Origin: Candidatus Saccharimonadales bacterium
GTDB taxonomy: Bacteria; Patescibacteriota; Saccharimonadia; Saccharimonadales; UBA10212
DNA length: 64,000 nucleotides
NCBI GenBank assembly: GCA_035758565.1
Contig: DASTXL010000002.1
Span: 83,118-147,117 of the forward strand
Direction: 5' to 3'
Below the pieces are notes generated by a model, which saw only the letters and a program-made list of their open reading frames with translations, did not search any database and was not told the DNA's origin. Position numbers and translations under genes: made by a program. Positions 951 to 55,360 of the stretch are shown here, piece by piece. Position 1 is the stretch's first letter. Every line of letters starts with the position of its first letter.

Positions 951-1073
951 TTTGTTTTGTTTTAAATTGTTTTTGTCTCTAAAGGTACGTCTAGTTTTAA
1001 GATAGACTAGCGCAAAATAAAAATCAATACTCTTATGGTTAAATTGGCGGTTATTAAACAACTAGGTGGTGGA

Positions 1074-1101
1074 GGTGGCGCCCCGGTTGTGGGGCGCCAC
1101 C
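1074..1101 (-). terminator. GC-rich perfect hairpin 3' of the Rpf-like gene
   Basis: GGTGGCGCCCC (1074-1084), loop GGTTGT, GGGGCGCCACC (1091-1101). The 11-bp perfect stem lies 2 nt beyond the TAG stop (1104-1106). There is no U-tract. Confidence 0.55.
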
Positions 1102-1103
1102 GT

Positions 1104-1925
1104 CTACACCGATCGAGACGAAATTGGCGCTGTCGAGTAGCCGCAGGCACGAGCCGTGTTGGGCCAAGGGTCAAACCCTCTGCCCGAGTAGTAGGCTCGC
1201 GAAGCGGCGATCATCTGCGCCCAGGCCGGCCAGTTGTTGGCCGTACCCCATCGCGCCATGAAGTCAGCTCCGTAACGGTTCTGGAACGGCAGATCCATCT
1301 GCAGACCGCCGTAGTAACCGTTGCCGGTGTTTGCGTTCCATGCTCCTTCGAAGCCGTGGATGCAAACGAAGCCGTGATACAGCCAATCGTGCTTGATCTT
1401 CGGTTGTGGCAGGAGCGGCTTGATCTGCTTGTCCAGCTTGACCAGTCGCTCCGTGCTTACTCGCACCGCACCGCGGGCAACTGCGCAGAGCCCTTCCGGG
1501 CCCTCGAGCAGATGCTTGCGACGCAGATCCCAGCAGGTGTAGCGCTGGTAGTGCCGGTACAGCGTCCAGCGACGCTGAGGGTTGTTCCAGTAGTGGACAG
1601 TGCCCACTCGACGACGCACCTCAGCGCACATGCGCCGAGCCTTGCTGAGCTTAGCGGAGCTAAGAACCCGCAGGCTCTTGTCCCTATGGCTAGAGGCAGC
1701 CTTGACCTGGCTGCAATGGTGGACCGCCGCCGCGGCCACGGAACTCTGGGCATCCGCTTGCTCCACCGAGGTGAAGGCAGCGAGCGCTGCCGCGGCAATA
1801 GCCGCAGCCAAGATCAGAATGAACCGACGAACCACGTCGTCTCCCTTCGGTCGATTTTTCAGGTTCTCGAGGCTATGAAAAACTAGCCCACGCTTTGTTC
1901 TGGTTACTAGTTTGTAAGCCATCAT
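1104..1925 (-). CDS. Secreted Rpf-like / transglycosylase-like domain protein (peptidoglycan hydrolase)
   Basis: The C-terminal domain CIHGFEGAWNANTGNGYYGGLQMDLPFQNRYG...WPAWAQMIAASRAYYSGRGFDPWP matches the resuscitation-promoting-factor type transglycosylase-like signature with its Glu. A signal-peptide-like stretch is present (RRFILILAAAIAAAALAAFTSVEQADAQ). A more likely start is GTG at 1835, preceded by AAGGGAG (1841-1847 on +). The ATG at 1925 lies in the low-GC flank. Confidence 0.8.
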   Translation of the reverse strand: MMAYKLVTRTKRGLVFHSLENLKNRPKGDDVVRRFILILAAAIAAAALAAFTSVEQADAQSSVAAAAVHHCSQVKAASSHRDKSLRVLSSAKLSKARRMCAEVRRRVGTVHYWNNPQRRWTLYRHYQRYTCWDLRRKHLLEGPEGLCAVARGAVRVSTERLVKLDKQIKPLLPQPKIKHDWLYHGFVCIHGFEGAWNANTGNGYYGGLQMDLPFQNRYGADFMARWGTANNWPAWAQMIAASRAYYSGRGFDPWPNTARACGYSTAPISSRSV

Positions 1926-5346: not shown

Positions 5347-5820
5347 TTAAAATGGGATGTCGTCGAGGTTGATCGGCTCATCGCCAATATCCTCGATAAC
5401 TACTTCCTCGTCATCCTTAGCTTTGCTGCTTGATTTGCTGGAACTTGCAGGCGCGCTTGAGCCACCACCGTCGCTGCCGCCAGGACCACCCAAGAATGTA
5501 ACGTCCTGGGCTACAACTTCAACTTTGCTACGTTTTTGACCATCTTGCTCCCAGCTACGGCTTTGCAAACGGCCATTAACTAACGCCGGGCGGCCCTTGG
5601 TCAGATACTGGGCAACGCGTTCGCCCAAAGGCCCCCAAGCCACGATGTCGATATAATCGGTCGCTTCGGTCCAGCCGCCATCGCTATTTTTATAGCTGCG
5701 GTTCAGCGCCAGACTAAAACTGCAAACGTTATTGCCATTTGGCGTAGTACGCAGTTCTGGATCGCGCGTTAGGTTGCCCATTAGAATTACTTGATTAAAA
5801 CTTCTTGCCATGGTTCGCAT
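5347..5820 (-). CDS. ssb: Single-stranded DNA-binding protein
   Basis: OB-fold N-terminus (NQVILMGNLTRDPELRTTPNG), Gly/Ser-rich linker, acidic tail ending DDIPF. Confidence 0.95.
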   Translation of the reverse strand: MRTMARSFNQVILMGNLTRDPELRTTPNGNNVCSFSLALNRSYKNSDGGWTEATDYIDIVAWGPLGERVAQYLTKGRPALVNGRLQSRSWEQDGQKRSKVEVVAQDVTFLGGPGGSDGGGSSAPASSSKSSSKAKDDEEVVIEDIGDEPINLDDIPF

Positions 5821-5955
5821 GTTTATGCTTCCAAATTACGGCGTCAAGCCTTCCGTTGCTCCTGCGAAGTAGAGTTCCTACGTCTTAGTCCGCTACTCGG
5901 GCTTTCCTTGTACTTTGTCGCCTAAACATCCTCCTTTTCTTTACTTATCCCTATT

Positions 5956-7667: not shown

Positions 7668-7868
7668 GAACTTTCTACCATATTTGTTTTACCTCTACGA
7701 CTTAATTCTATTAAGCTCGTGCTTATTTGACAATTATAAAATTTACAATTGTTACTAACCTGTTTTAGGAGTATTGTGAGCTTAGGTTCCTGGTCGCTGG
7801 AGTTTTTTAGCGGAGGAGCTATCGGTCTTAAACAACTAGGCACAGAAGGAGGCTCGGCTTTGAGCGCA

Positions 7869-8438
7869 ATGACAGAATTCGCCGGCCTTCTCTGGTCGCG
7901 AGCAACACCTGCACGTCGTCCGCTCGGACGGCTGCATACCTGGCTGGACAGTCGGCTTCGCCCGCGCAAAGACCTGATCGGCTGGCTGTGGCGCATGTTT
8001 CACAACCGGGAGTGGCAGAAGAGCGCATTGCAGAGTGCCGCCTTCTGGGTGCTGGCCACTTTGGTCATCTCCCGTCTGCTGCACCAGCTCGGTCACGGCT
8101 GGTACGTGAGCGTCGGCGTCAGCTTGGGGATGGACAGCGTTACGTACGCCATCAACAAGCTCTGGATCTGGCGCAAGCGCAATGTCGGCATCAAGAAGAG
8201 CTGCAAACGCAATTTCAGCGCGTGGGCAGCGTTCTTCGCCTTCAACGCCGCACTGGCCTGGATGTTGATGCATCCGGCTGGCGTCGGCACCATGCACGCC
8301 CGCTACATCCTCGGCGCCGTGGGCTTCGTAGCCAACCCGGTGATCTTCACCGTCCGTGACCGGCTGGTCTTCAGCCCGGAGAAGATCCAAGAGGTATTCG
8401 CGGAGTTCCGGCAAATCCTGTTCAAGACCGTGGCGTGA
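7869..8438 (+). CDS. GtrA-like small polytopic membrane protein (high-GC islet 2)
   Basis: Four predicted TM helices and an INKLWIWRKR motif resembling the GtrA-family N-x-x-W-x-F-R box. AAGGAGG lies at 7847-7853. Start candidates are TTG 7860, ATG 7869 or ATG 7995. The track ORF start at 7749 lies in the AT-rich flank. Confidence 0.6.
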   Translation: MTEFAGLLWSRATPARRPLGRLHTWLDSRLRPRKDLIGWLWRMFHNREWQKSALQSAAFWVLATLVISRLLHQLGHGWYVSVGVSLGMDSVTYAINKLWIWRKRNVGIKKSCKRNFSAWAAFFAFNAALAWMLMHPAGVGTMHARYILGAVGFVANPVIFTVRDRLVFSPEKIQEVFAEFRQILFKTVA

Positions 8439-8466
8439 GCCCGGGTCGCTCGCAAGCGATCCGGGC
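8439..8466 (+). terminator. GC-rich hairpin directly after the GtrA-like stop codon
   Basis: GCCCGGGTCGCT (8439-8450), loop CGCA, AGCGATCCGGGC (8455-8466). This is a 12-bp stem with one G-T pair. Confidence 0.55.
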
Positions 8467-8576
8467 CACGTCTCACCCCTGTTTTATAAATCCTAGTCCT
8501 TTATTATTCGTCTGACATGCTTGCCCCGCAGCGATTCCTGAATGTAGAAGAGAATGAATAATTCTATTTCGAAATA

Positions 8577-29328: not shown

Positions 29329-29904
29329 TTATAAGTTCAGAGTTGATTTAATCTGTAATTTAAAACCCTCTAAATCATTGTCGTTGTTGGTTAAAAAAAT
29401 ATCAGACTTGGCTTTGACAGCCGACATACTCAAGGTAGCCGCATCGCCGCCTTCGTGCATTTCGTCCTCTTCTTCTTTCAGGAATTGATCAAACGTTTTT
29501 TGGTCTTCGGCGCTGCGCGACCTAGAAGAAACGCGCTGGTAACGCAGTTTAGGATCGGCATCAACCCAAACTACTTTGCCGCCCAATTGGTGGATTTCAT
29601 CGGCTTCGCCGGCGTTTCTAAGATTAGAGATAACCAAGCCAGCGTATTTGCCGTCTGTTGCTTTAAAAACTTCAACCGCTTTATCCATGAGGATTCCTAG
29701 GCCAAATTCCCGGCGCCACTCGGCGCTAATTTTCCTTAAATTCTGGCGCTCGATTGGCAAATTCCGACGCCTGGCTTCGTCACGCAGCAAATCCGACACA
29801 GAAACAAACAGCCAGTCATAATCTTCGGCGAGAATTTGACCCAGAGTATCTTTGCCAGAGCCGTTTGTACCAGAAATACCAATTAACTGGAGCGGCTTAC
29901 GCAT
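29329..29904 (-). CDS. P-loop nucleotide/nucleoside kinase-like protein
   Basis: Walker [13 protein letters not shown] and an overall small-kinase layout (dephospho-CoA/adenylate kinase-like). The substrate cannot be inferred. Confidence 0.55.
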
Positions 29905-31054
29905 CCTTGAGCTCTTGTGCTTCTTGCATACCCTCTAGATGATTCAGGGCATCTCTTTCTATTTTTCGAATTCTTTCTCTGGCCATTCCCCAGCTTCTTC
30001 CGATTTCGTCCAAAGTTTGAGGCTCGCCCTCAAACCCGTAGCGGGCTGATATAACTTTTCTTTCCATATAGGGCAAGCTGTCTACGAGTTCGCGGATACG
30101 CTCACGGCGAATATCCTCGTGAACGGTTTCTTCGACAGGGGGTTCGGAATCGTTTTCTATCATGTCGCCAAGCTCAGCATCGTCTTCTTCGCCAACGGTC
30201 ATGTTCAAAGATACAGAAGCTCTTACCAGAGACTTAACTTCCTCGACATCCTGAACCGACAGAACGGCTTTGTCGGCAATTTCTTCGTTAGTCGGTTCGC
30301 GCCCTAGCTCCACAACCAAGTCGCGTTCGGCTTTCACAACTTTGTTGAGTTTTTCAACCATGTGCACCGGAATACGGATGGTGCGGGCCTTGTCGGCCAG
30401 GGCCCGGGCTACAGCTTGGCGAATCCACCAGGTAGCGTAAGTAGAGAATTTGAAACCTTTGCGCCAGTCGAACTTTTCAGTGGCTCGATTTAACCCGATG
30501 CATCCCTCTTGAATTAAATCCAAAAAGGGCAGGCCTTGGTTTCGATAACGCTTGGCAATAGAAACCACTAAGCGCAGGTTACTCTCTACCATTTTTTCCT
30601 TGGCCGCCGCATCGCCTCTCTCAATTCTTTTGGCCAGAGTCACCTCTTGATCCGCAGTCAGTAAAGGGTGTTTACCTACCTCTCTTAAGAAAAGCTGTAA
30701 ACTATCCAGCGAGCCGCTCCTAATCAGCTCATCAATTTCCTGCTCCTCACCCTCGTGGTCGCCGTTGATAGTCACCCCCGATTGTTCGATCATGTGAATC
30801 ACCCGGCTAACATCGTGATCCTCTAAACCTAAGCCGTCACAGGCACTGGTAATTGATTCTAGATCAATAAGGCCGTGGTTCTGGGCCGACTCGAGTAAAG
30901 AGCTTATCTCTGGCTGACTTAAAAGATCCGCATAATTGTCGATTCCTGATTCATAACCGCCACCTACCACTTCTAGGTGTGGCTGCGAATAGTAGGCGGC
31001 AGGTCCGTCTTCTTCCGGAGCAATACTAGTATTAAAACTTGGCCCGAATTCCAT
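29897..31054 (-). CDS. RpoD-type sigma-70 factor, second tandem copy
   Basis: Regions 1.2-4 are present: [46 protein letters not shown], and the C-terminal 4.2 [22 protein letters not shown]. Confidence 0.85.
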
Positions 31055-31097: not shown

Positions 31098-32237
31098 TTA
31101 CTGCAGGTATTCGTGCAGACGGCGGGTTTCTTTGTTCTTGCGCAGTTTAGCCAGGGCTTTGGCTTCGATCTGACGGATGCGCTCGCGGGTAACGCTGAAC
31201 TCCTGACCGACTTCTTCTAGAGTGTGGCTTTTGCCGTCCTCTAGGCCAAAACGTAGCTTTAAGATCTTTTGTTCGCGCTCGGTTAGTGTGCCTAAGATTT
31301 GACGAACTTGTTCTTTGAGCAGCTGTTCGCTGGCAGACTCGGTAGGACTTTTTTGGTCTTCGTCCTCGATAAAATCGCCCAAAACGCTATCTTCTTCGTC
31401 GTCGCGGACCGAAGCATCGAGCGAACTGATATCTTGTTTAATTTTCATGATGTGCTCGACCTTGTCGACATCCATCTCCATAGCAACGGCAATTTCTTCG
31501 TTGGTCGGTTCGCGGTTTAACTCCTGAGTCAGGCGGCGCTGGGTGCGCAGCAGCTTATTGATAGTTTCGACCATGTGCACCGGAATACGGATGGTGCGGG
31601 CCTGGTCGGCAATGGCCCGGGTGATAGCTTGGCGAATCCACCAAGTTGCATAAGTAGAAAATTTGAAACCGCGTTCTGGATCGAATTTTTCTACTGCGCG
31701 CAACAAACCAGTGTTGCCTTCTTGGATTAAATCAAGCAGGTCTAAGCCACGGCCTACATAACGCTTAGCAATAGAGACTACCAAACGCATGTTGGCTTCG
31801 GCCATTTGGTCTTTGGCCCGTTTGTCGCCGGACACGACCCTTTTAGCCAGCGCCAACTCTTCTTCGGCGGACAAAAGCGGGATTTTACCGATTTCGCGCA
31901 AGTAAAGACGCACGCTGTCATCGGCAATATCGTCTATATAAGAGTTGTCCTCTTTTAGAAGTTCTTCTTCGGCTTCCTCTTCTTCCCAATCGCTCAGTTC
32001 TACGGCGTCAGGTTCGGTAGCCGGCAGCAGTTCGATGTCGTTTTCGGTCATTTCGGCATATAGGCGTTCCAGCACATCGATATTTGCCGGAGCGTCTGGA
32101 ATCAATGCGAAAATATCGCGCTGATCGAGTTTACCGTCTTTCTTACCCTGCTCGAGCAACTGGGTAATTTCTTTATCATAAGTTTTGTTGGTCCGCTTGG
32201 GCGCGGCCTTCTTGTCTTCAGCTTTCTTTCTGGGCAT
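31098..32237 (-). CDS. rpoD: RNA polymerase primary-like sigma factor
   Basis: [69 protein letters not shown]. It lies directly downstream of dnaG, as in the classical dnaG-rpoD arrangement. Confidence 0.9.
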
Positions 32238-35969: not shown

Positions 35970-38900
35970 ATGCGCGAGCGGCTTGTTAGGGTGGCTAAAC
36001 AAACATCAAAAAGGTTCTTAACACTAACGGCGGCTACGATTATGGCCTTTTCTGGCCTGGCTTTGGCCAGTCCGATGTTCTTCACTGGCAACGTTGCGGC
36101 CGCTGGCGGCATCCTTTTGCTAAACGAGATTTTTCCCAGCCCGGATCTGAACAGTCAAAGTGAATGGGTAGAAGTTTATAACCCCGGCAGTACCAGTGTC
36201 AGCACCAGCGGCTGGAACATTTCTTCATCCGGCCACGATTTTAGCGGTAGTGGTAATGTAAGCAACAATTGTTCCGACACTGTTCCGGCCTACGGCTACT
36301 GTGTTTTTACTGATAACTCCCAGGTCAGTGCCCAGCAACTGCTCGCCAACGGCGGCGACACAGTTACGCTGACTAATGGGGTTAATAGCGACTCCGTAAC
36401 CTACCCTTCTATAAGCAGTAGCTCTGATATGAGCTACGCTCGGACCGTGAACGGCGCAGGTAGCTGGACTTCGGCCTCTCCAAGCGAAGGAACCAGTAAC
36501 GATCCTGCCGACAACTTGAGCGTCTGCGCCAGCAACTGTGACTATACGAGCATTGGCGCTGCTATCTCTGGCGCCCAAGCCGGCACGGACATCTACGTCG
36601 ATCCAGGCACTTACCATGAGAACGTTAACGTTAATAAGGCCGTTACGCTTATGGGTGCGGGCGCAGATAGTACCACGATTGTAGCTACCGACGGCAATTC
36701 TTCGCCGCTAACCTTCAGCGGCAACGGCGCCACTGTCAGCGGCTTTACTATCACCCACGACTACACTGACTCTGAGCTGGCCGCCTGGAACTTTAACAAT
36801 AACGGCGTGACTTTCGGCCAATTGACCCACGACAACACTCTTGAGAATTCAACAGTCACTCTTAACCGTAACGGTGTCTACCTGAACAATTCAGAAGATA
36901 ACGTAGTGACCCGCAACACCATCACGAACAACCGGACCGGCGTTAACATGACCAACGATCTGGCCGGTACTCAGATAACCGACAATGTAATTTCGGATAA
37001 CTGGACCGAGGGTTTGGTTACCTACGACTCGGGTATTGCCATCAACTATTCCAACGTCACCGTTAGCGGCAACACTTTTGATCAAAACTGGTACGAACAA
37101 ATCACTGTCAAAAATACGAGTCTCTCCAGCGGCACTCTTGACGTTAGCGGCAACACTTTCAGCGACAGTCCGGTCACTTACACGACTTCTTCCAGCTCCA
37201 GCTTGGACGAGCCGGGATTTGCCGCTCAGCAGCCGGTAAGCCTAGGCGGTACGGCTACCAAGCCTGCTCAAAGTCTGCCTACCCTGCGCATCTTTAACGG
37301 CGGCAACGTCAGCCTAGGCTACAGTGGCAAGACTTTGAAGGTTGGCGCGGACGAACCTTACACCACTATTCAATCAGCCGTTAACGACGCTTCGGCCGGC
37401 GACACGATTGCCGTTGATGCCGGAACCTACAATGAGTCACCGACTATTAATAAGTCGCTGACCCTGACCGGCGCCCAAGCCGGCGTAGCTGGCTCTAGCC
37501 ACAGCGGCAATGAATCAACGGTTAACCGTTTCTATGTCACTGCCGGCGGTGTTACCGTCAACGGTTTTAGCTTCAACGGCACCAGCACCAGCGGCCAGCT
37601 TCAGGTCTTGTCGGCCTCTACTTTGTCAGGAATTGTCGTCGAGAATAATGTCTTCAGCGGATATAGCAATGTTGCTCTGCCAACCAATGGTGCCGGTAAT
37701 ATTGTAATTAAGCAAAACCTGTTCACCTCTCCGGGCGCTCCAGCTGAGGCTATCCAGATCAAGCCATACAGCAACCAGAACGTCATTAATCAGCACGACT
37801 GTAACGGCACCCAGGTCTTAAACAACGTATTTACCAACGCCACAACCAACGGCGCGGCCGATATCAACTTTTCCTGCACCGGCAGTAATTCGTCTAATGT
37901 TACCGTGTCGGGCAATACCAGCACTAACCCAACCGACCCTAACGGCCCGAACATGGTAGCCTTCTCGGGTGTCACGGACGGGATTGTGGTAAGCAACAAC
38001 ACGGCAAGCACCAGCGGTTCACAAGTACTCTTCTTCGGCAGCGTCAGCGGCACGGCTTCGATTACCGGCAATACCTTCACGAATGGTGGCGGGAAGGCCG
38101 TTTCCATCCATGGCGGCGACCATTATGCCGGCGTAAATGACAGCTCCAACACTGGTACGTTTACAATTACGGGCAATACCTTCAGCGGCAACGCTTACGG
38201 CGTATACGTACAAAGTGGCTCCCTCAGCGGCAGTGGTTCAGTCGACGCCTCACACAACTACTGGGGCACGGCCGTAGCTTCAACCATAGAAGGCGAGAAC
38301 ACCAGCGGTGTCACCGTTTCGCCATACTATGTTGATCACTTAAACGGCACTTTAAGTTCGGTAGTGCCTACCACGGTTTACGTTAACCAAACCGGTCACA
38401 TCCCCGGCTACGACGAATTCTCTACCATCAGCGAAGCCGTCAATGCTGTCGCCAGCGGCGGTACCGTCAACGTCGGCGCCGGCAACTACACTGAAAGTTC
38501 ACTTACACTTGCTAAGCCGCTGAACCTGTTCGGACCAAACAAGGACGCTAATCCGAATACCGACACCCGCGTCAGCGAAGCGACAGTGACCGGCCACATC
38601 CTGGTCACTTCCAGCAATGTTGAAATCAAAGGTCTAACTCTTACCGATCCAAACTATTCTGGCGTCAGTATTGAAGCCGTCCAGGTCTACGGTTCCGGTT
38701 CGCTAGTTAGCAACGTGACTGTCCAAAACAACATTTTTACCAGCATTGAAAACAGCGCGGCTCACGGCGCTTACGGCGTCATGGTTCAGGGCAACGTCAA
38801 GACTATCGAGGTCTACGCCAACAAATTTAGCGGCATCAACGCTACTACTAGCGGCGGCTGGGCCCACGCTATCGAAGTTTCTCCCACCAGCTCCAATGGC

Positions 38901-40031
38901 AGCATTCCGCAAGATGTTAGGGTTATTGGCAACAGCTTCTCGAACATTACCAACGTTGGTAATTCGGATGCTTACGCCTTCAGCGTCGATAGTACTACCT
39001 ACGGCGGCCAAACAGTTTACGCTGATGCCTCGCAGATTCTACCGTTTGCCGGCAACAGCCTGGCTGGCCTAAAGGTTCGCAACCTTGACCCCAACCATAC
39101 CTTAGATCTAACCGACAACTGGTGGGGCAATGTCTTGGGCGCTAGCAGCAGCCAATACAGCGGCGCCGTCGATGTATCGAGCTGGTGCACAGACAGCACC
39201 TGTACTTCCGACCAATCGGCCTCAAGCGGCACTACTACATTGCCGTCAGGTTCACTTGGCACGCCAACCACTTCCGGCAACACTTCCAGCCTTACACTGC
39301 CTTCAACCAACGACGTAACAGCTTCTACTACGACTTCTAGCGGCACGGTTCAAGTTACAATTCCAGCCGGTATCACTATTAGCGCTCCGGCTAGCAGTAA
39401 CTGGGATGGCACTATTACCGCCCCGACCGTCACAACTGTTCAACTGGGTTCTACTAAAACTGTCTCGCTAGCCATCCAAGTTGGCGCTTCTGGAGTAGAT
39501 TTGACATTCGATAAGGCCGTTCGCTTGGTTCTGCCCGGCCAGGCTGGCCAATCAGTCGGCTTTGTTAACGCCGAAGGCGTCTTTAGCACCATCGACGCTT
39601 GTGTAGCTGGCGACGACCAGAACGCTCAGGACACAGCCTTACTCGCGGGCGGTGATTGTTATCTGACTTCCGGCAGCGACTTAGTAGTTTGGACCAAGCA
39701 CTTCACTACCTTTGTTGCCTATACGCCTGCACCGCAGAGTTCTAACGGCAACTCTTCTAGTGCCACAACCACTTCCGCCTCAACCACTGGCTCCCAAGCC
39801 AGCAATGGCTCTGGTGCCGGCGAAGTGCAAGGACAAAATACCTCAGCTACCAGCGGCAAAACTTCAAGCACCAACGTTAAGACACCAGCTGCCAACGCTA
39901 GCCAGCCTAAGGTTGCCGCCAAAGAAGCCGGCGGCATCCGCTGGTATTGGTGGGTCATCGTTGCCCTAGTTGCTCTAGCAGCTATCGGCTTTGGTGTTTA
40001 CCGTTACGCCGACGGCACTGACAAAAATTAA
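35970..40031 (+). CDS. Giant surface protein: signal/TM, lamin-tail (LTD) domain, three right-handed beta-helix modules, Ser/Thr-rich stalk, C-terminal TM anchor
   Basis: The LTD-like segment is LLLNEIFPSPDLNSQSEWVEVYNPGSTSVSTSGWNI...YCVF. Three beta-helix entry motifs follow: YTSIGAAISGAQAGTDIYVDPGTYHENV, YTTIQSAVNDASAGDTIAVDAGTYNESP and FSTISEAVNAVASGGTVNVGAGNYTESS. The C-terminal anchor is WYWWVIVALVALAAIGFGVYRY. Confidence 0.8.
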   Translation: MRERLVRVAKQTSKRFLTLTAATIMAFSGLALASPMFFTGNVAAAGGILLLNEIFPSPDLNSQSEWVEVYNPGSTSVSTSGWNISSSGHDFSGSGNVSNNCSDTVPAYGYCVFTDNSQVSAQQLLANGGDTVTLTNGVNSDSVTYPSISSSSDMSYARTVNGAGSWTSASPSEGTSNDPADNLSVCASNCDYTSIGAAISGAQAGTDIYVDPGTYHENVNVNKAVTLMGAGADSTTIVATDGNSSPLTFSGNGATVSGFTITHDYTDSELAAWNFNNNGVTFGQLTHDNTLENSTVTLNRNGVYLNNSEDNVVTRNTITNNRTGVNMTNDLAGTQITDNVISDNWTEGLVTYDSGIAINYSNVTVSGNTFDQNWYEQITVKNTSLSSGTLDVSGNTFSDSPVTYTTSSSSSLDEPGFAAQQPVSLGGTATKPAQSLPTLRIFNGGNVSLGYSGKTLKVGADEPYTTIQSAVNDASAGDTIAVDAGTYNESPTINKSLTLTGAQAGVAGSSHSGNESTVNRFYVTAGGVTVNGFSFNGTSTSGQLQVLSASTLSGIVVENNVFSGYSNVALPTNGAGNIVIKQNLFTSPGAPAEAIQIKPYSNQNVINQHDCNGTQVLNNVFTNATTNGAADINFSCTGSNSSNVTVSGNTSTNPTDPNGPNMVAFSGVTDGIVVSNNTASTSGSQVLFFGSVSGTASITGNTFTNGGGKAVSIHGGDHYAGVNDSSNTGTFTITGNTFSGNAYGVYVQSGSLSGSGSVDASHNYWGTAVASTIEGENTSGVTVSPYYVDHLNGTLSSVVPTTVYVNQTGHIPGYDEFSTISEAVNAVASGGTVNVGAGNYTESSLTLAKPLNLFGPNKDANPNTDTRVSEATVTGHILVTSSNVEIKGLTLTDPNYSGVSIEAVQVYGSGSLVSNVTVQNNIFTSIENSAAHGAYGVMVQGNVKTIEVYANKFSGINATTSGGWAHAIEVSPTSSNGSIPQDVRVIGNSFSNITNVGNSDAYAFSVDSTTYGGQTVYADASQILPFAGNSLAGLKVRNLDPNHTLDLTDNWWGNVLGASSSQYSGAVDVSSWCTDSTCTSDQSASSGTTTLPSGSLGTPTTSGNTSSLTLPSTNDVTASTTTSSGTVQVTIPAGITISAPASSNWDGTITAPTVTTVQLGSTKTVSLAIQVGASGVDLTFDKAVRLVLPGQAGQSVGFVNAEGVFSTIDACVAGDDQNAQDTALLAGGDCYLTSGSDLVVWTKHFTTFVAYTPAPQSSNGNSSSATTTSASTTGSQASNGSGAGEVQGQNTSATSGKTSSTNVKTPAANASQPKVAAKEAGGIRWYWWVIVALVALAAIGFGVYRYADGTDKN

Positions 40032-53162: not shown

Positions 53163-53426
53163 TTACTTTACGGTCGCTAAAATATCTTCTTCTTTAACTA
53201 AAATGTACTCTTTGTCTTCAACCTTGACCTCGGTTGTCGAGTAGGACTTATAAACAATCCGGTCACCCGGCTTAATTTCTTTTACCCCTTTGCCAACCTT
53301 TAAAACTTTGGCCACTTTTGGCTTCTCGGCGGCTTTATCTGGCAAGTACAGGCCAGATGCAGTTTTAGTCACGGCCTCTTCTTGCTCGGCCACGACCCAC
53401 TCGTTCAATGGATTTAAACTAGACAT
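53163..53426 (-). CDS. groES: Co-chaperonin GroES
   Basis: The mobile-loop region (TASGLYLPDKAAEKP) and Cpn10 length. Confidence 0.95.
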   Translation of the reverse strand: MSSLNPLNEWVVAEQEEAVTKTASGLYLPDKAAEKPKVAKVLKVGKGVKEIKPGDRIVYKSYSTTEVKVEDKEYILVKEEDILATVK

Positions 53427-53469
53427 ATCTCCTCCTGATTATTACCTAGAATGGAGCCTCAAGCTCCAG

Positions 53470-53496
53470 CTAGCACTCATGATATACGAGTGCCAA
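53470..53496 (-). promoter_or_regulatory. CIRCE operator (HrcA site) upstream of groES
   Basis: CTAGCACTC-N9-GAGTGCCAA against the consensus TTAGCACTC-N9-GAGTGCTAA. A TTGACA -35 (minus strand, 53508-53503) precedes it. Confidence 0.8.
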
Positions 53497-53622
53497 AATT
53501 CCTGTCAAGAGATATGAAGCTTATGCTTGCCGTAACTTAATTAATGTTGACCGATTAAAATCAGAGGAGTAGACTCTTTTTATTCCAGGCCACCCCCCCC
53601 CAAGTGGAAAGGCAGGTGCGTT

Positions 53623-54033
53623 ATGTCGGGTTACGCAATCGATGGCCTCGTCATCGAGCGCTGTGGCCGCGAGGTCTCGCTGGTCAACGTCATGGGCGCG
53701 GTTCCCAACCCCGCCTCTGTCGGTCCGATCCGACGGGAGTTCGCGAAGGTCATGGGCATGCATCCGAAGCGCGTGGTCGGCCCCTCTGGGCCGGACTCCA
53801 CCGGTTCGGTCACCGTCCTGACCGCCACGGTCCCGGAGCACCGCGAGGACGACGCAGAGCTGACGATCTGGGAGATCATCGCCCGCAAGGGCAACCTGAT
53901 CGAACCTCAGCTCACCAAGACGAGCCCGAGCAACTTCGGCTCACGTCGAAGGCGCGCGATGCGCAGCCACCCGCACGAGACGCCGCTTCCGCGGCTAACG
54001 AGTCGTGGGCGCAGCTGCGGGCACCTGCACTAG
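53623..54033 (+). CDS. Orphan ORF of high-GC islet 3 (possibly decayed at the 3' end)
   Basis: This is the only frame with a protein-like N-terminal 100 aa or so (MSGYAIDGLVIERCGREVSLVNVMGAV...AELTIWEIIARKGNLIEPQ) and high third-position GC. The last 35 aa or so are Arg/His-rich and third-position GC drops, while another frame becomes GC3-rich. A frameshifted remnant is possible. Confidence 0.35.
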   Translation: MSGYAIDGLVIERCGREVSLVNVMGAVPNPASVGPIRREFAKVMGMHPKRVVGPSGPDSTGSVTVLTATVPEHREDDAELTIWEIIARKGNLIEPQLTKTSPSNFGSRRRRAMRSHPHETPLPRLTSRGRSCGHLH

Positions 54034-54043
54034 CCGGATTCGC

Positions 54044-54068
54044 GGGGACCGGGCAGCGCCCGGTCCCC
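54044..54068 (+). terminator. GC-rich perfect hairpin after the islet-3 ORF
   Basis: GGGGACCGGGC (54044-54054), loop AGC, GCCCGGTCCCC (54058-54068). It starts 10 nt after the TAG at 54031-54033. Confidence 0.55.
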
Positions 54069-54129
54069 TCCCCTGTTGGACTGGATACCTGCCGCGGATT
54101 CTGCATTAGCAGAAGCCCGCGGTTCTCCC

Positions 54130-54138
54130 TGTTATACT
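54130..54138 (+). promoter_or_regulatory. Extended -10 (TGTTATACT) 6 nt upstream of the ATG at 54145
   Basis: An identical 9-mer occurs at 58007-58015 upstream of valS. There is no SD between the box and the ATG. Confidence 0.4.
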
Positions 54139-54144
54139 TAGCCC

Positions 54145-54942
54145 ATGGCCAAAAATATCTTGATGTGCGCTCCTGACTTTTTTGATATCGAATACGAAAT
54201 CAATGTTTGGATGCACCAAGAAAACCAAGTTGCTGAAGAAACCGCCGAAGACCAGTGGCGCAAACTTTATAAAATTTACTCTGAAAAACTTGGCTGGAAC
54301 GTCAAATTAATCGACCCCGTCAAAGGCCTGCCTGATATGGTATTTGCCACCGACTGCTGCCTGATGATAGATGACAAAATCCTACTTTCCTCTTTCCGAT
54401 TTCCGGAACGCCAGCCCGAAACCGAGCACTTTGAAAAATGGTTCCGCGCCAAAGGTTATACCAAGATCAAAAAAGCTAAAAACTTCTTCGAAGGCGGTGG
54501 CGATAATTTAATTTGTGGTAACAAGATCCTAGCCGGCCACGGCTTCCGCTCTAGCCCGGAAGCGGCCACGGAACTGCAAAGTTACTTCGACCGCGAGGTT
54601 GTCAGTCTAAAAATCGTCGACCCGCGCTTTTATCATTTGGATACTTCCCTAGCCGTGTTATCCGACGACACGGTCGCCAGCTACCTGCCGGCCCTCGACG
54701 AAGCCAGCCAAAAACGCCTAAAAGCCGCTGTTCCAAATGTTATCGAAGCCACGCTAGAAGAAGCCCAAGGCTTTGGCTTAAACGCTGTAAGTGACGGTCA
54801 CACCGTAATTACCAGCAACGAGTCAGAAAGCTTGCTCGCTAAATACCGCACCGCCGGTTTTGAAGTAATTGGCACGCCAATTTTAGAATTCCGAAAAAGC
54901 GGCGGCGGCGTTAAGTGTTTGACTCTCGACCTAGACCACTAG
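54145..54942 (+). CDS. Guanidino-group-modifying enzyme (amidinotransferase / DDAH / arginine-deiminase-fold family)
   Basis: FEGGGD, YHLDT and the C-terminal catalytic-Cys motif SGGGVKCLTL. Confidence 0.7.
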   Translation: MAKNILMCAPDFFDIEYEINVWMHQENQVAEETAEDQWRKLYKIYSEKLGWNVKLIDPVKGLPDMVFATDCCLMIDDKILLSSFRFPERQPETEHFEKWFRAKGYTKIKKAKNFFEGGGDNLICGNKILAGHGFRSSPEAATELQSYFDREVVSLKIVDPRFYHLDTSLAVLSDDTVASYLPALDEASQKRLKAAVPNVIEATLEEAQGFGLNAVSDGHTVITSNESESLLAKYRTAGFEVIGTPILEFRKSGGGVKCLTLDLDH

Positions 54943-54943
54943 A

Positions 54944-55360
54944 TTAGTGCATTCGCGGACGCGCAGCGCCCACATTTCCAGTTCTAAACGAACTGCCGTT
55001 TGTCTTCGGGCCCCAAGGTACATGGGCGGCCATGGCATGAGCCCGACGAGTCATCTCTTGGTCTTCGGCCAGCTTAACGACGTGCTGGATCTCGGCAACC
55101 AGGCCGTCCTGGCCCAAAACTACCCTATATACATCATCGGCCGCGCAGACGTGAGCGCCAACTGGGTCAGTAGCCTCGTCTAAGATTGCCTCATAGGCCG
55201 TGCCGCTGCCTACAGGCAGCATTTCTACTAGCCGGGTCAGGCTCAAAGCTCGTTCAGCCTCACCGGCTCTCAATGCATAAATTCTTTTACGCTGTTCTTC
55301 GAATGATTTTGCCGGCAATATTCCGACGGGGATATCTATGACAGTTTCAGATCCGTTCAT
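54944..55360 (-). CDS. Hypothetical protein (138 aa)
   Basis: ORF flanked tightly by neighbouring genes. No motif recognised. Confidence 0.4.
   Translation of the reverse strand: MNGSETVIDIPVGILPAKSFEEQRKRIYALRAGEAERALSLTRLVEMLPVGSGTAYEAILDEATDPVGAHVCAADDVYRVVLGQDGLVAEIQHVVKLAEDQEMTRRAHAMAAHVPWGPKTNGSSFRTGNVGAARPRMH

Follow-up and report, generated by a model that had tools for sequence, protein, structure and literature searches.

The 64,000-nt stretch of Candidatus Saccharimonadales DNA analysed here (the window; contig DASTXL010000002.1 of assembly GCA_035758565.1) contains a G+C-rich islet at positions 53590–54128, islet 3, which carries one open reading frame of 136 codons (ORF136) next to groES. 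Islet 3 is an orphan accessory gene at a genomic hot spot, with a compositional anomaly that is maintained and a conserved, predicted closed-loop RNA layout. On balance, we favour its interpretation as a native Saccharimonadales module, in which an intact accessory gene is transcribed autonomously. We could not find a description of either the maintained GC anomaly or the closed-loop layout in the literature searched, and these searches returned no description of such islets in Saccharibacteria.

The reading frame at 53623–54033 (plus strand) is an intact coding sequence of 136 aa, annotated in NCBI as VFT49_03235, a hypothetical protein of a Saccharimonadales metagenome-assembled genome (MAG). 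An exhaustive HMMER search of 1.84 billion cluster representatives identified one real relative, P0002 (138 aa, E = 6e-30), and nothing outside two Saccharimonadales populations; P0002 is the sole homologue of ORF136 among approximately 15 billion proteins. Their alignment covers residues 1–134 of the 136 with 47% identity and two indels, both in frame, and the tail elements FGS(R/K)RRR, PHETPLPRLT and SCG are kept in both proteins. The DNA encoding PHETPLPRLT differs at three sites, all of them synonymous third positions, while differences per codon position over the genes are 50/49/73 and the ratio of nonsynonymous to synonymous divergence (dN/dS) is approximately 0.52. G+C by codon position in ORF136 is 0.64/0.53/0.85, in comparison to an average third-position G+C (GC3) of 0.51 (standard deviation, sd, 0.06) for the 63 ORFs of the window. 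Third-position G+C is 0.77–0.93 in every 90-nt window lying wholly within the ORF, and 0.77–0.83 toward the stop codon, with strong three-base periodicity over the full length. Judged on these sequence comparisons, ORF136 is a protein-coding gene under moderate constraint. The first-pass annotation had placed a single protein-like ORF here, followed by two GC hairpins, and all of these were located as claimed. Its reading of the ORF as a frameshifted, decaying remnant, in whose tail another frame takes over the high third-position GC, was rejected because ORF136 is a coding gene under moderate constraint. There is no frameshift or truncation with respect to the full-length P0002, the two proteins keep the tail in the same frame and the GC profile by codon phase continues up to the stop codon. 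The rise of GC in a second phase within the tail occurs because the tail is rich in CGN arginine codons and not due to a change of frame.

P0002 is encoded on contigs of several sequencing runs (six shown, seven on record), the longest of which is L002. Its gene there (ORF138) is found in the order groEL–groES–(196-aa gene)–ORF138–Mur ligase–TsaD, the same neighbourhood as in the window, and has 66% G+C, with the adjoining spacer falling to 34%. The two genomes share 81% identity in GroEL, 66% in TsaD and 53–55% in Mur ligase, and their native genes are synonymously saturated (proportion of synonymous differences, pS, 0.75–0.81). For ORF136 and ORF138, pS is 0.55 and dN 0.52, which is about the divergence expected of a fast-evolving orthologue; at a GC3 near 0.85, pS would by our estimate saturate near 0.6. 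GC3 is nevertheless 0.85 in ORF136 and 0.81 in ORF138, versus 0.54–0.61 in native genes (approximately 0.6 in those of L002). A young transfer that has yet to ameliorate was therefore dismissed, given copies only 47% identical, a pS near saturation and both GC3 values above 0.8. A similarly high GC3 in both copies despite saturated native synonymous sites indicates that the high GC is maintained and is not the scar of a recent transfer. GC is elevated in a second islet family also (the islet 1 orthologues described below), which implies that some force tied to these units holds their composition; we infer that this would be either RNA-structure selection or biased gene conversion as modules are exchanged among Saccharimonadales. 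An islet of deviant composition is commonly taken for a recent import that is due to ameliorate, whereas islet 3 and its L002 counterpart stay at a GC3 of 0.81–0.85 over a divergence that has saturated native synonymous sites.

The G+C content of 53590–54128 is 67.3%, with 500-nt flanks of 42.8 and 46.4%. This segment is the maximum among all 539-nt windows of the 64 kb (mean 0.490, sd 0.038), approximately 4.8 sd above the mean, and no 539-nt window outside the locus equals it. The window as a whole has 49.0% G+C (sd of 200-nt windows 0.053), and 200-nt windows within the islet (starts 53601–53951) have 0.65–0.695. The deviant composition reported by the first-pass annotation accordingly stands, and its hand counts of G+C, 41/60 for 53641–53700 and 21/60 for 54181–54240, were exact on recount. 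Given the abrupt GC changes and a record that is a MAG, an assembly chimera or a binning artefact might be suspected, but the chance of this is negligible. An independent Logan assembly of run SRR25158471 holds a 12,450-bp contig that is 100% identical over both islet 3 junctions, and a match across 12.45 kb without a difference makes a chimera very unlikely. Furthermore, a homologous module is syntenic in six contigs shown (seven recorded), each from another sequencing run, and the same architecture occurs in approximately 20 MAGs of unrelated studies, including a complete chromosome (L042).

Promoter scanning identified an AT-rich module promoter on the plus strand at 53527–53575, consisting of a conserved upstream stretch, the -35 element TTGACC (53547–53552), a 17-nt spacer and the -10 element TAGACT (53570–53575). 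Its counterpart before the homologue in L002 is TTGACT-N17-TATACT, and the alignment of the two loci extends both to sequence 5' of the promoter and to the C-rich leader and ribosome-binding site. A profile built on 11 such promoters matched only this position in approximately 600 kb of related sequence (E = 3e-9 for the window copy). High GC spans approximately from the transcript start to the terminator. The leader arm of a predicted closing helix (UCCAG-G-CCA, 53584–53592, from minimum free energy [MFE] and centroid folds and arm analysis) begins 8 nt past the -10 element, near the expected 5' end of the transcript. It is followed by a C9 homopolymer (53593–53601) within a small predicted CCAC...GUGG hairpin, and by a Shine-Dalgarno-like GGAAAGG (53606–53612) located 10 nt 5' of the ATG, the equivalent of which in L002 is GGAAGGAAG. 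Related modules have runs of C5–C6 in place of C9, and L044 has a long G run beside an assembly gap; the C9 tract could be a site of slipped-strand variation, or could just be hard for assemblers.

Both stem-loops that the first-pass annotation had described downstream of the ORF were recovered on the plus strand. The 11-bp perfect, G+C-rich stem at 54044–54068 was confirmed by inverted-repeat search, with a 3-nt loop and its start 10 nt past the stop codon. Its counterpart in L002 has 13 bp and another sequence in the same position, and GC-rich ORFs at many related loci terminate in GC-rich perfect hairpins. The imperfect second stem-loop, claimed at about 54093–54123, was found at 54092–54122 with arms CCGCGGATTCTGC/GCAGAAGCCCGCGG (also given as CCGCGGAUUCUGC / GCAGAAGCCCGCGG) and, from its sequence, is probably the intrinsic terminator of the module. 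In both loci this hairpin begins with GCCGCG, and the L002 copy ends in a U-tract. Homologous GCCGCG...CGCGGC stems are found in nine modules, mostly followed by U-tracts (clear in most of the eight other modules), and RNAalifold, run on leader plus trailer aligned with MAFFT, recovered this stem with compensatory changes at six of its 12 consensus pairs. Between the two hairpins lies the trailer arm of the predicted closing helix (UGG-A-CUGGA, 54077–54085, plus strand), assigned by folds, permutation tests and arm analysis. A gap of 4 nt separates its end from the terminator stem used in the arm analysis, and one of 6 nt from the stem at 54092. The motif between the hairpins is GGACUGGAUA in the window and GGGACAAGAAUAA in L002. 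The 'right-edge' motif CCCTGTT, said earlier to match between islets, was indeed found and sits in the trailer, between or after the hairpins. Rfam gave no match at E ≤ 1 in 53400–54250, and at gathering scores only tRNAs were found in the window and four related loci. In the 3' regions of L002 (~5775–5825), L028 and L035, ORFs of 2–10 codons occur between the main ORF and the first hairpin, each behind a strong CUCUGAAAGGAGG ribosome-binding context; they may represent either remnants or elements of translational coupling.

In reverse complement, the inter-hairpin motif matches the nucleotides that immediately follow the -10 element, and the closing helix that joins them was present in both kinds of fold, MFE and centroid, for the window transcript and for that of L002, with GGGACAAGAAUAA pairing to UUAUUCUGUCCC in the latter. 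All 13 modules have a 3'-region segment to which their leader is complementary, and in the nine so examined this segment ends 0–10 nt before the terminator. The arm sequences vary by module (CCAGUCC, CCAUCC, UUAGUCCUAUUC, UUAGUCAGGUC and others), yet remain complementary. Cognate leader/trailer pairs were stabler than non-cognate pairs, the observed sum for the 13 modules being reached by at most one of 20,000 permutations; for the nine modules with arms set purely by position, it was reached by nine of 50,000. These tests replaced whole-region duplex folding of leader against 3' region, which failed to discriminate, as a GC-rich 3' region will pair with any sequence. RNAalifold on the MAFFT alignment did not recover the closing helix, since this alignment left the arms out of register. 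Folding z-scores were -4.5 for islet 3, -7.0 for the L002 module, -7.1 for islet 1 and -3.6 for islet 2, while 23 native control segments of 551 nt gave a mean of -0.97 (sd 1.1, minimum -2.9). The closing helix of the window copy is a prediction, supported mainly by homology of layout.

To the left of islet 3 lies groES (53163–53426, minus strand) with groEL, and to the right a gene of the dimethylargininase/amidinotransferase fold (54145–54942), beyond which are the Mur ligase and TsaD genes. The divergent groES-groEL operon has a CIRCE (controlling inverted repeat of chaperone expression) operator, CTAGCACTC-N9-GAGTGCCAA, at 53470–53496 on the minus strand, an element read from the sequence and present in all relatives. 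Its near-consensus promoter (minus strand; -35 TTGACA at 53508–53503, -10 TATCAT at 53484–53479) is the native left border of the slot that the islet occupies. Comparison with L038 identified the native right border as TATACTTAG-N2-ATG (54134–54147, plus strand), the start context of the dimethylargininase-type gene. In L038, which is without an islet, this TATACTTAG..ATG context directly abuts the groES promoter, and the indel unit is therefore approximately 53510–54133, promoter included. In several genomes (window, 54134–54147; L038, L022) the dimethylargininase-type gene starts 2–5 nt 3' of a conserved TATACTTAG or TATACTAG; such closeness to the start codon suggests a -10 element just before the ATG and hence a leaderless message for this gene.

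Scanning the GTDB species representatives with GroES retrieved 35 loci, 28 of them with a complete gap. The order TsaD–Mur ligase–(gap)–groES–groEL is nearly universal among the 35. About 19 of the 28 complete gaps hold one to four islets of 400–600 bp each with 60–75% G+C, in genomes of 45–52% G+C; five are empty (117–179 bp). What had been taken for a simple insertion between groES and a guanidino-modifying enzyme gene is thus the occupant of a conserved, promoter-equipped slot found order-wide. With regard to presence in relatives, which the first-pass annotation wished to see checked, islet-type modules are shared (about 19 of 28 loci) but no detectable relative of ORF136 occurs in the 35 loci. 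At least 13 loci have an ORF that is divergent from groES behind a promoter of the same type, and in 10 of the loci it is the same conserved promoter (11 copies including the window). The slot ORFs encode 98–151 aa at a GC3 of ~0.67–0.90; 12 of 14 products are basic (pI 9.1–11.7 versus a native median of 5.7). By all-against-all phmmer they form three small families plus singletons, with no links between families by sequence and profile–profile probabilities below 1%, so that 'one diverged family' could not be claimed.

Tandem arrays of modules were found in L011, L024 and L042. The largest is that of L042 (5285–10000 of the complete chromosome OZ246413.1), where the groES–Mur ligase gap reaches 4.7 kb and holds approximately four islets of 63–76% G+C. 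A second group of modules reads toward groES, with arms UUCGGCAACAAG and CUUGUUGCCGAA and a covarying variant, UUCAGUAGCAAG and CUUGCUACUGAA, in L002. These were observed in L002 (4386–5016), L018, L020, L021, L029, L034, L041 and L044 and consist of an ORF, again without family assignment, a perfect 11–15-bp GC hairpin, CUUGUUGCCGAA plus a U-run complementary to the module's own leader, and a small conventional terminator. A rough neighbour-joining tree of GroEL, Mur ligase and TsaD, drawn without support values, grouped the window with L019, and L002 with L013 and L014 in another clade. The nearer relatives of both the window and L002 hold unrelated slot ORFs, and a second ORF family (L028, L035) is also split between clades. 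Two histories fit this distribution: an ancestral array lost differentially, or modules moving among Saccharimonadales.

The first-pass annotation had also proposed that islet 3 shares a cassette layout with two other islets of the window. This is right, and more specifically so than was claimed, since islets 1 and 2 match islet 3 in having a single GC-rich ORF, a terminal GC hairpin, a predicted closing helix and strong predicted folding. Islet 1 (1045–1925, minus strand) carries an Rpf-like transglycosylase gene with a closing helix and a terminal GC hairpin at 1074–1101. Its syntenic orthologues, 47–59% identical, occur in Saccharimonadales-type contigs (full-length in L045 and L047) with a GC3 of 0.70–0.77, and their closing arms covary (ACUAG/CUAGU versus ACUGA/UCAGU). 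Islet 2 (7822–8500) carries a GC-rich gene for a GtrA-like membrane protein, and in the predicted fold its leader CGGUCUUAAACA pairs with UGUUCAAGACCG, which closes the ORF and immediately precedes the terminal hairpin. An exact 13-mer, TTAAACAACTAGG, is common to the left edges of islets 1 and 2 (positions 1054 and 7828) but does not occur in islet 3. The islet 2 copy covers the 3' end of CGGUCUUAAACA, the leader arm used in the fold, and extends past it, whereas the islet 1 copy is the trailer in reverse complement.

The product of ORF136 is predicted to be soluble, with a pI of 10.1. The best AlphaFold2 model (mean predicted local distance difference test score, pLDDT, 72; 39–52 for the other four) suggests a beta-beta-alpha-beta-alpha domain at residues ~8–95 (9–92 in the model itself), with residues ~100–136 predicted to form a disordered Arg/His-rich tail that carries the conserved PHETPLPRLT and SCG motifs. 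One guess is that the Arg-rich tail binds nucleic acid. A fold search with the model gave no significant neighbour (best E = 0.15 in the PDB and 0.06 in BFVD; template modelling [TM] scores of ~0.3–0.4, query- and target-normalised), and ORF136 had no significant profile match in Pfam, NCBIfam, PHROGs, PADLOC or the PDB.

If islet 3 is such a native module, its sigma-70-type promoter would fire away from groES and give a transcript of ~545 nt with leader, ribosome-binding site, 136-codon ORF, perfect GC hairpin, short trailer and terminator hairpin. The first nucleotides of the leader would pair with the trailer just 5' of the terminator, and through this pairing the whole mRNA is predicted to close into a compact GC-rich fold. 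By analogy with the hok and aapA mRNAs, we infer that the two RNA ends are protected by this fold and that translation is probably limited or gated by it, so that the product would be made from a long-lived, structurally controlled message. As the comparison of loci shows, islet 3 is one occupant of a slot beside the chaperonin genes of soil Saccharimonadales, between the groES promoter and the Mur-ligase/TsaD block, that takes from zero to four modules per genome, with promoter, closing helix and terminator in common and ORFs that are unrelated. A number of observations weigh against this reading. The start, end and folding of the islet 3 transcript are predictions, and no module of the set has a weaker closing helix than the window's, which has 8 bp, an internal mismatch and -11 kcal/mol, being no more specific than non-cognate combinations and 12th of 13 after normalisation. 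The terminator copy in the window has a degenerate U-tract, UUCUCCCUGUU, and was not flagged by the terminator scan. The structure model of ORF136 rests on two sequences and was confident in one of five models. Homology among the slot occupants could not be recovered by sequence or profile comparison, and to treat them as one class therefore relies on regulatory/RNA architecture and position. Finally, the C-terminal catalytic (transglycosylase) domain of the islet 1 protein is 76–81% identical to proteins of Gaiellaceae (Actinobacteria), which makes an actinobacterial ultimate origin plausible for at least some modules, though not demonstrably for islet 3.

The Gaiellaceae-like domain of islet 1 also speaks for the origin first suggested for islet 3 itself, namely a recent import from a high-GC Gram-positive donor with an ORF decaying by frameshift. 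GC, GC3 and the Arg/Ala/Gly/Pro-rich composition are Actinobacteria-like, and Saccharibacteria live on Actinobacteria. No homologue was found in any actinobacterium, phage or plasmid in the searches made, however, and the proposed donor could not be recovered. Two word-indexed searches of 5.8 billion protein clusters gave no ORF136 relative beyond the two Saccharimonadales populations, and none was found by tblastn against 50,697 phage and 72,556 plasmid records, in IMG/VR, or in two scans of Joint Genome Institute (JGI) metagenome contigs with a protein pattern and a back-translated PHETPLPRLT DNA pattern. The pattern matches in JGI contigs L008 and L009 were due to chance, with no ORF in the matching frame, and P0003, a 547-aa tandem-repeat protein with seven matches to residues 70–122 at 25% identity, was judged a summed low-complexity match. 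As the sole homologue is full-length with its tail in frame, in the same slot behind the same AT-rich promoter of another Saccharimonadales genome, and GC3 is equally high in both copies though synonymous sites are saturated, a decaying import is highly unlikely. It could also be asked if a structured non-coding RNA of ~0.5 kb is the product and the ORF is incidental to GC-rich sequence. The strong three-base periodicity over the full ORF speaks against this, as do the conserved ribosome-binding site, start and stop, the in-frame indels, the exclusively synonymous changes in the conserved stretch and the lack of an Rfam match even at E ≤ 1. We regard it as very unlikely, in spite of the very strong folding z-scores, a closing stem typical of stable RNAs, an RNA layout conserved among modules with unrelated ORFs, and all six frames being open.

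The leader/trailer repeats might act instead as DNA ends recognised by a recombinase, or as single-stranded DNA folds, with cassettes swapped at a promoter-bearing platform beside groES in the manner of integrons or miniature inverted-repeat transposable elements (MITEs). Occupancy of zero to four modules, the tandem arrays, a single conserved promoter before unrelated ORFs, ORF families that are patchy against the marker-gene tree and a GC-rich part bounded by inverted repeats would all suit a mobile cassette, and a published survey traced the majority of the transfers detected in Patescibacteria to donors within the same group (PMC12455944). The patchiness is equally explained by differential loss from an ancestral array, however, and no integrase, transposase or other recombinase gene adjoins the slot in the window or L002. 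No target-site duplication is visible, the arms differ by module with no single recognition consensus, the hairpins of 25–31 nt are too short for attC, and the L038 comparison places the promoter inside the indel unit, which is not what a promoterless cassette would show. Mobility of this type is consequently unlikely. A module similar to type I toxins, in which 5'–3' pairing would block translation of a toxic message before its processing, is suggested by the long-distance pairing that is the hallmark of hok and aapA mRNAs (PMC6733600), and in islet 3 the stretch between the ribosome-binding site and AUG (GCAGGUGC) also has a predicted pairing partner, GCACCUGC, where the ORF ends. By estimate, chance alone would give ~0.3 such 8-mer complements, and this one is not conserved in L002. 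With a predicted soluble alpha/beta protein of 136 residues in place of a short hydrophobic peptide, and no antisense promoter-like (sigma-70) site on the minus strand within the islet in a consensus scan, which cannot exclude one, this is extremely unlikely. A bolder extension of the native-module interpretation is that Saccharimonadales carry an undescribed class of closed-loop single-gene units, in which a conserved promoter, a 5'–3' closing helix, a GC hairpin and a terminator surround hypervariable ORFs, with Actinobacteria-like GC and codon usage actively maintained, through an unknown cassette exchange that uses the leader/trailer repeats or through RNAs or proteins acting on or in the actinobacterial host. 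This we consider a long shot; if it were true, the groES slot would serve epibiotic life as a locus of effectors or of variation.

Among known systems, islet 3 resembles flexible genomic islets and ORFan hot spots in the variable occupancy of a fixed site between core genes, its deviant composition and the absence of an assignable family. It differs from these in a higher GC that is confined to the transcribed unit and persists after synonymous saturation, and in the conserved promoter and RNA layout shared by unrelated ORFs. Integron cassettes are similarly single-ORF units that end in an imperfect palindrome, sometimes in tandem, with host-unlike composition and unrelated ORFs at one site. 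The slot has no integrase or attI, however, and its neighbours are groES-groEL, the dimethylargininase-type gene, Mur ligase and TsaD. Its palindromes are of 25 and 31 nt without an R/L signature, in contrast to attC sites of 57–141 nt with R''/L'' and L'/R' boxes; the GTTRRRY box had one match, GTTGGAC at ~54075, which by our estimate is at chance level. Moreover, islet 3 has its own promoter, and inverted repeats flank the ORF, where integron cassettes are promoterless with a single attC. Staphylococcus RNAIII is an RNA of ~0.5 kb with long-range helices joining its ends, several stable hairpins and an embedded ORF. The islet 3 RNA is predicted to be likewise ~0.5 kb with joined ends, hairpins and an ORF inside, but this ORF fills most of the transcript and there is no evidence of a regulatory RNA function. 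The mRNAs of type I toxins (hok/Sok, aapA/IsoA; PMC6733600, PMC9841398) are, like that predicted here, monocistronic and compact with 5'-to-near-3' pairing, and probably poorly translated but stable. The long-distance interaction that characterises them is found in islet 3 as a prediction from folds and from cognate specificity across modules. The product here is a soluble basic protein of 136 aa and not a membrane-targeting peptide of <60 aa, no antisense antitoxin is evident, and sequestration of the ribosome-binding site is not conserved. Host-to-epibiont transfer in Saccharibacteria (PMC7427843, PMC8764695) would agree with a lineage dependent on high-GC Actinobacteria and with islets that are host-like in composition; in the case of islet 3, no host homologue was found, and the module, although older than the separation of two deep clades of Saccharimonadales, has not been ameliorated.

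The forces that may keep such a unit at high GC include selection on RNA structure, biased gene conversion at an exchange hot spot and a host-directed role. GC-based filters for contamination or transfer would wrongly remove native genes of this kind from MAGs. Saccharibacteria are now genetically tractable and most of their lineage-specific genes are uncharacterised; the slot, where interchangeable and fast-evolving ORFs share a conserved promoter and RNA scaffold, is a defined and easily found place for work on the turnover of genes and on accessory functions in this group.

A number of other features were observed in the window. Between the dimethylargininase-type and Mur ligase genes, at 54944–55360 (minus strand), there is a 138-aa ORF without family and with mildly elevated GC (55%), the sole weak relative of which is found in L024 (33% identity). 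Two tandem full-length genes of the sigma-70 family (29897–31054 and 31098–32237, minus strand), each with regions 1.2, 2, 3 and 4, have a 184-nt stretch in common at 80% identity. In a genome of small size, a pair of primary-like sigma factors is unexpected; the two might be connected with different classes of promoter. Lastly, 35970–40031 encodes a protein of 1353 aa with a lamin-tail domain, right-handed beta-helix repeats and several internal DNA repeats, which is probably a large surface protein.

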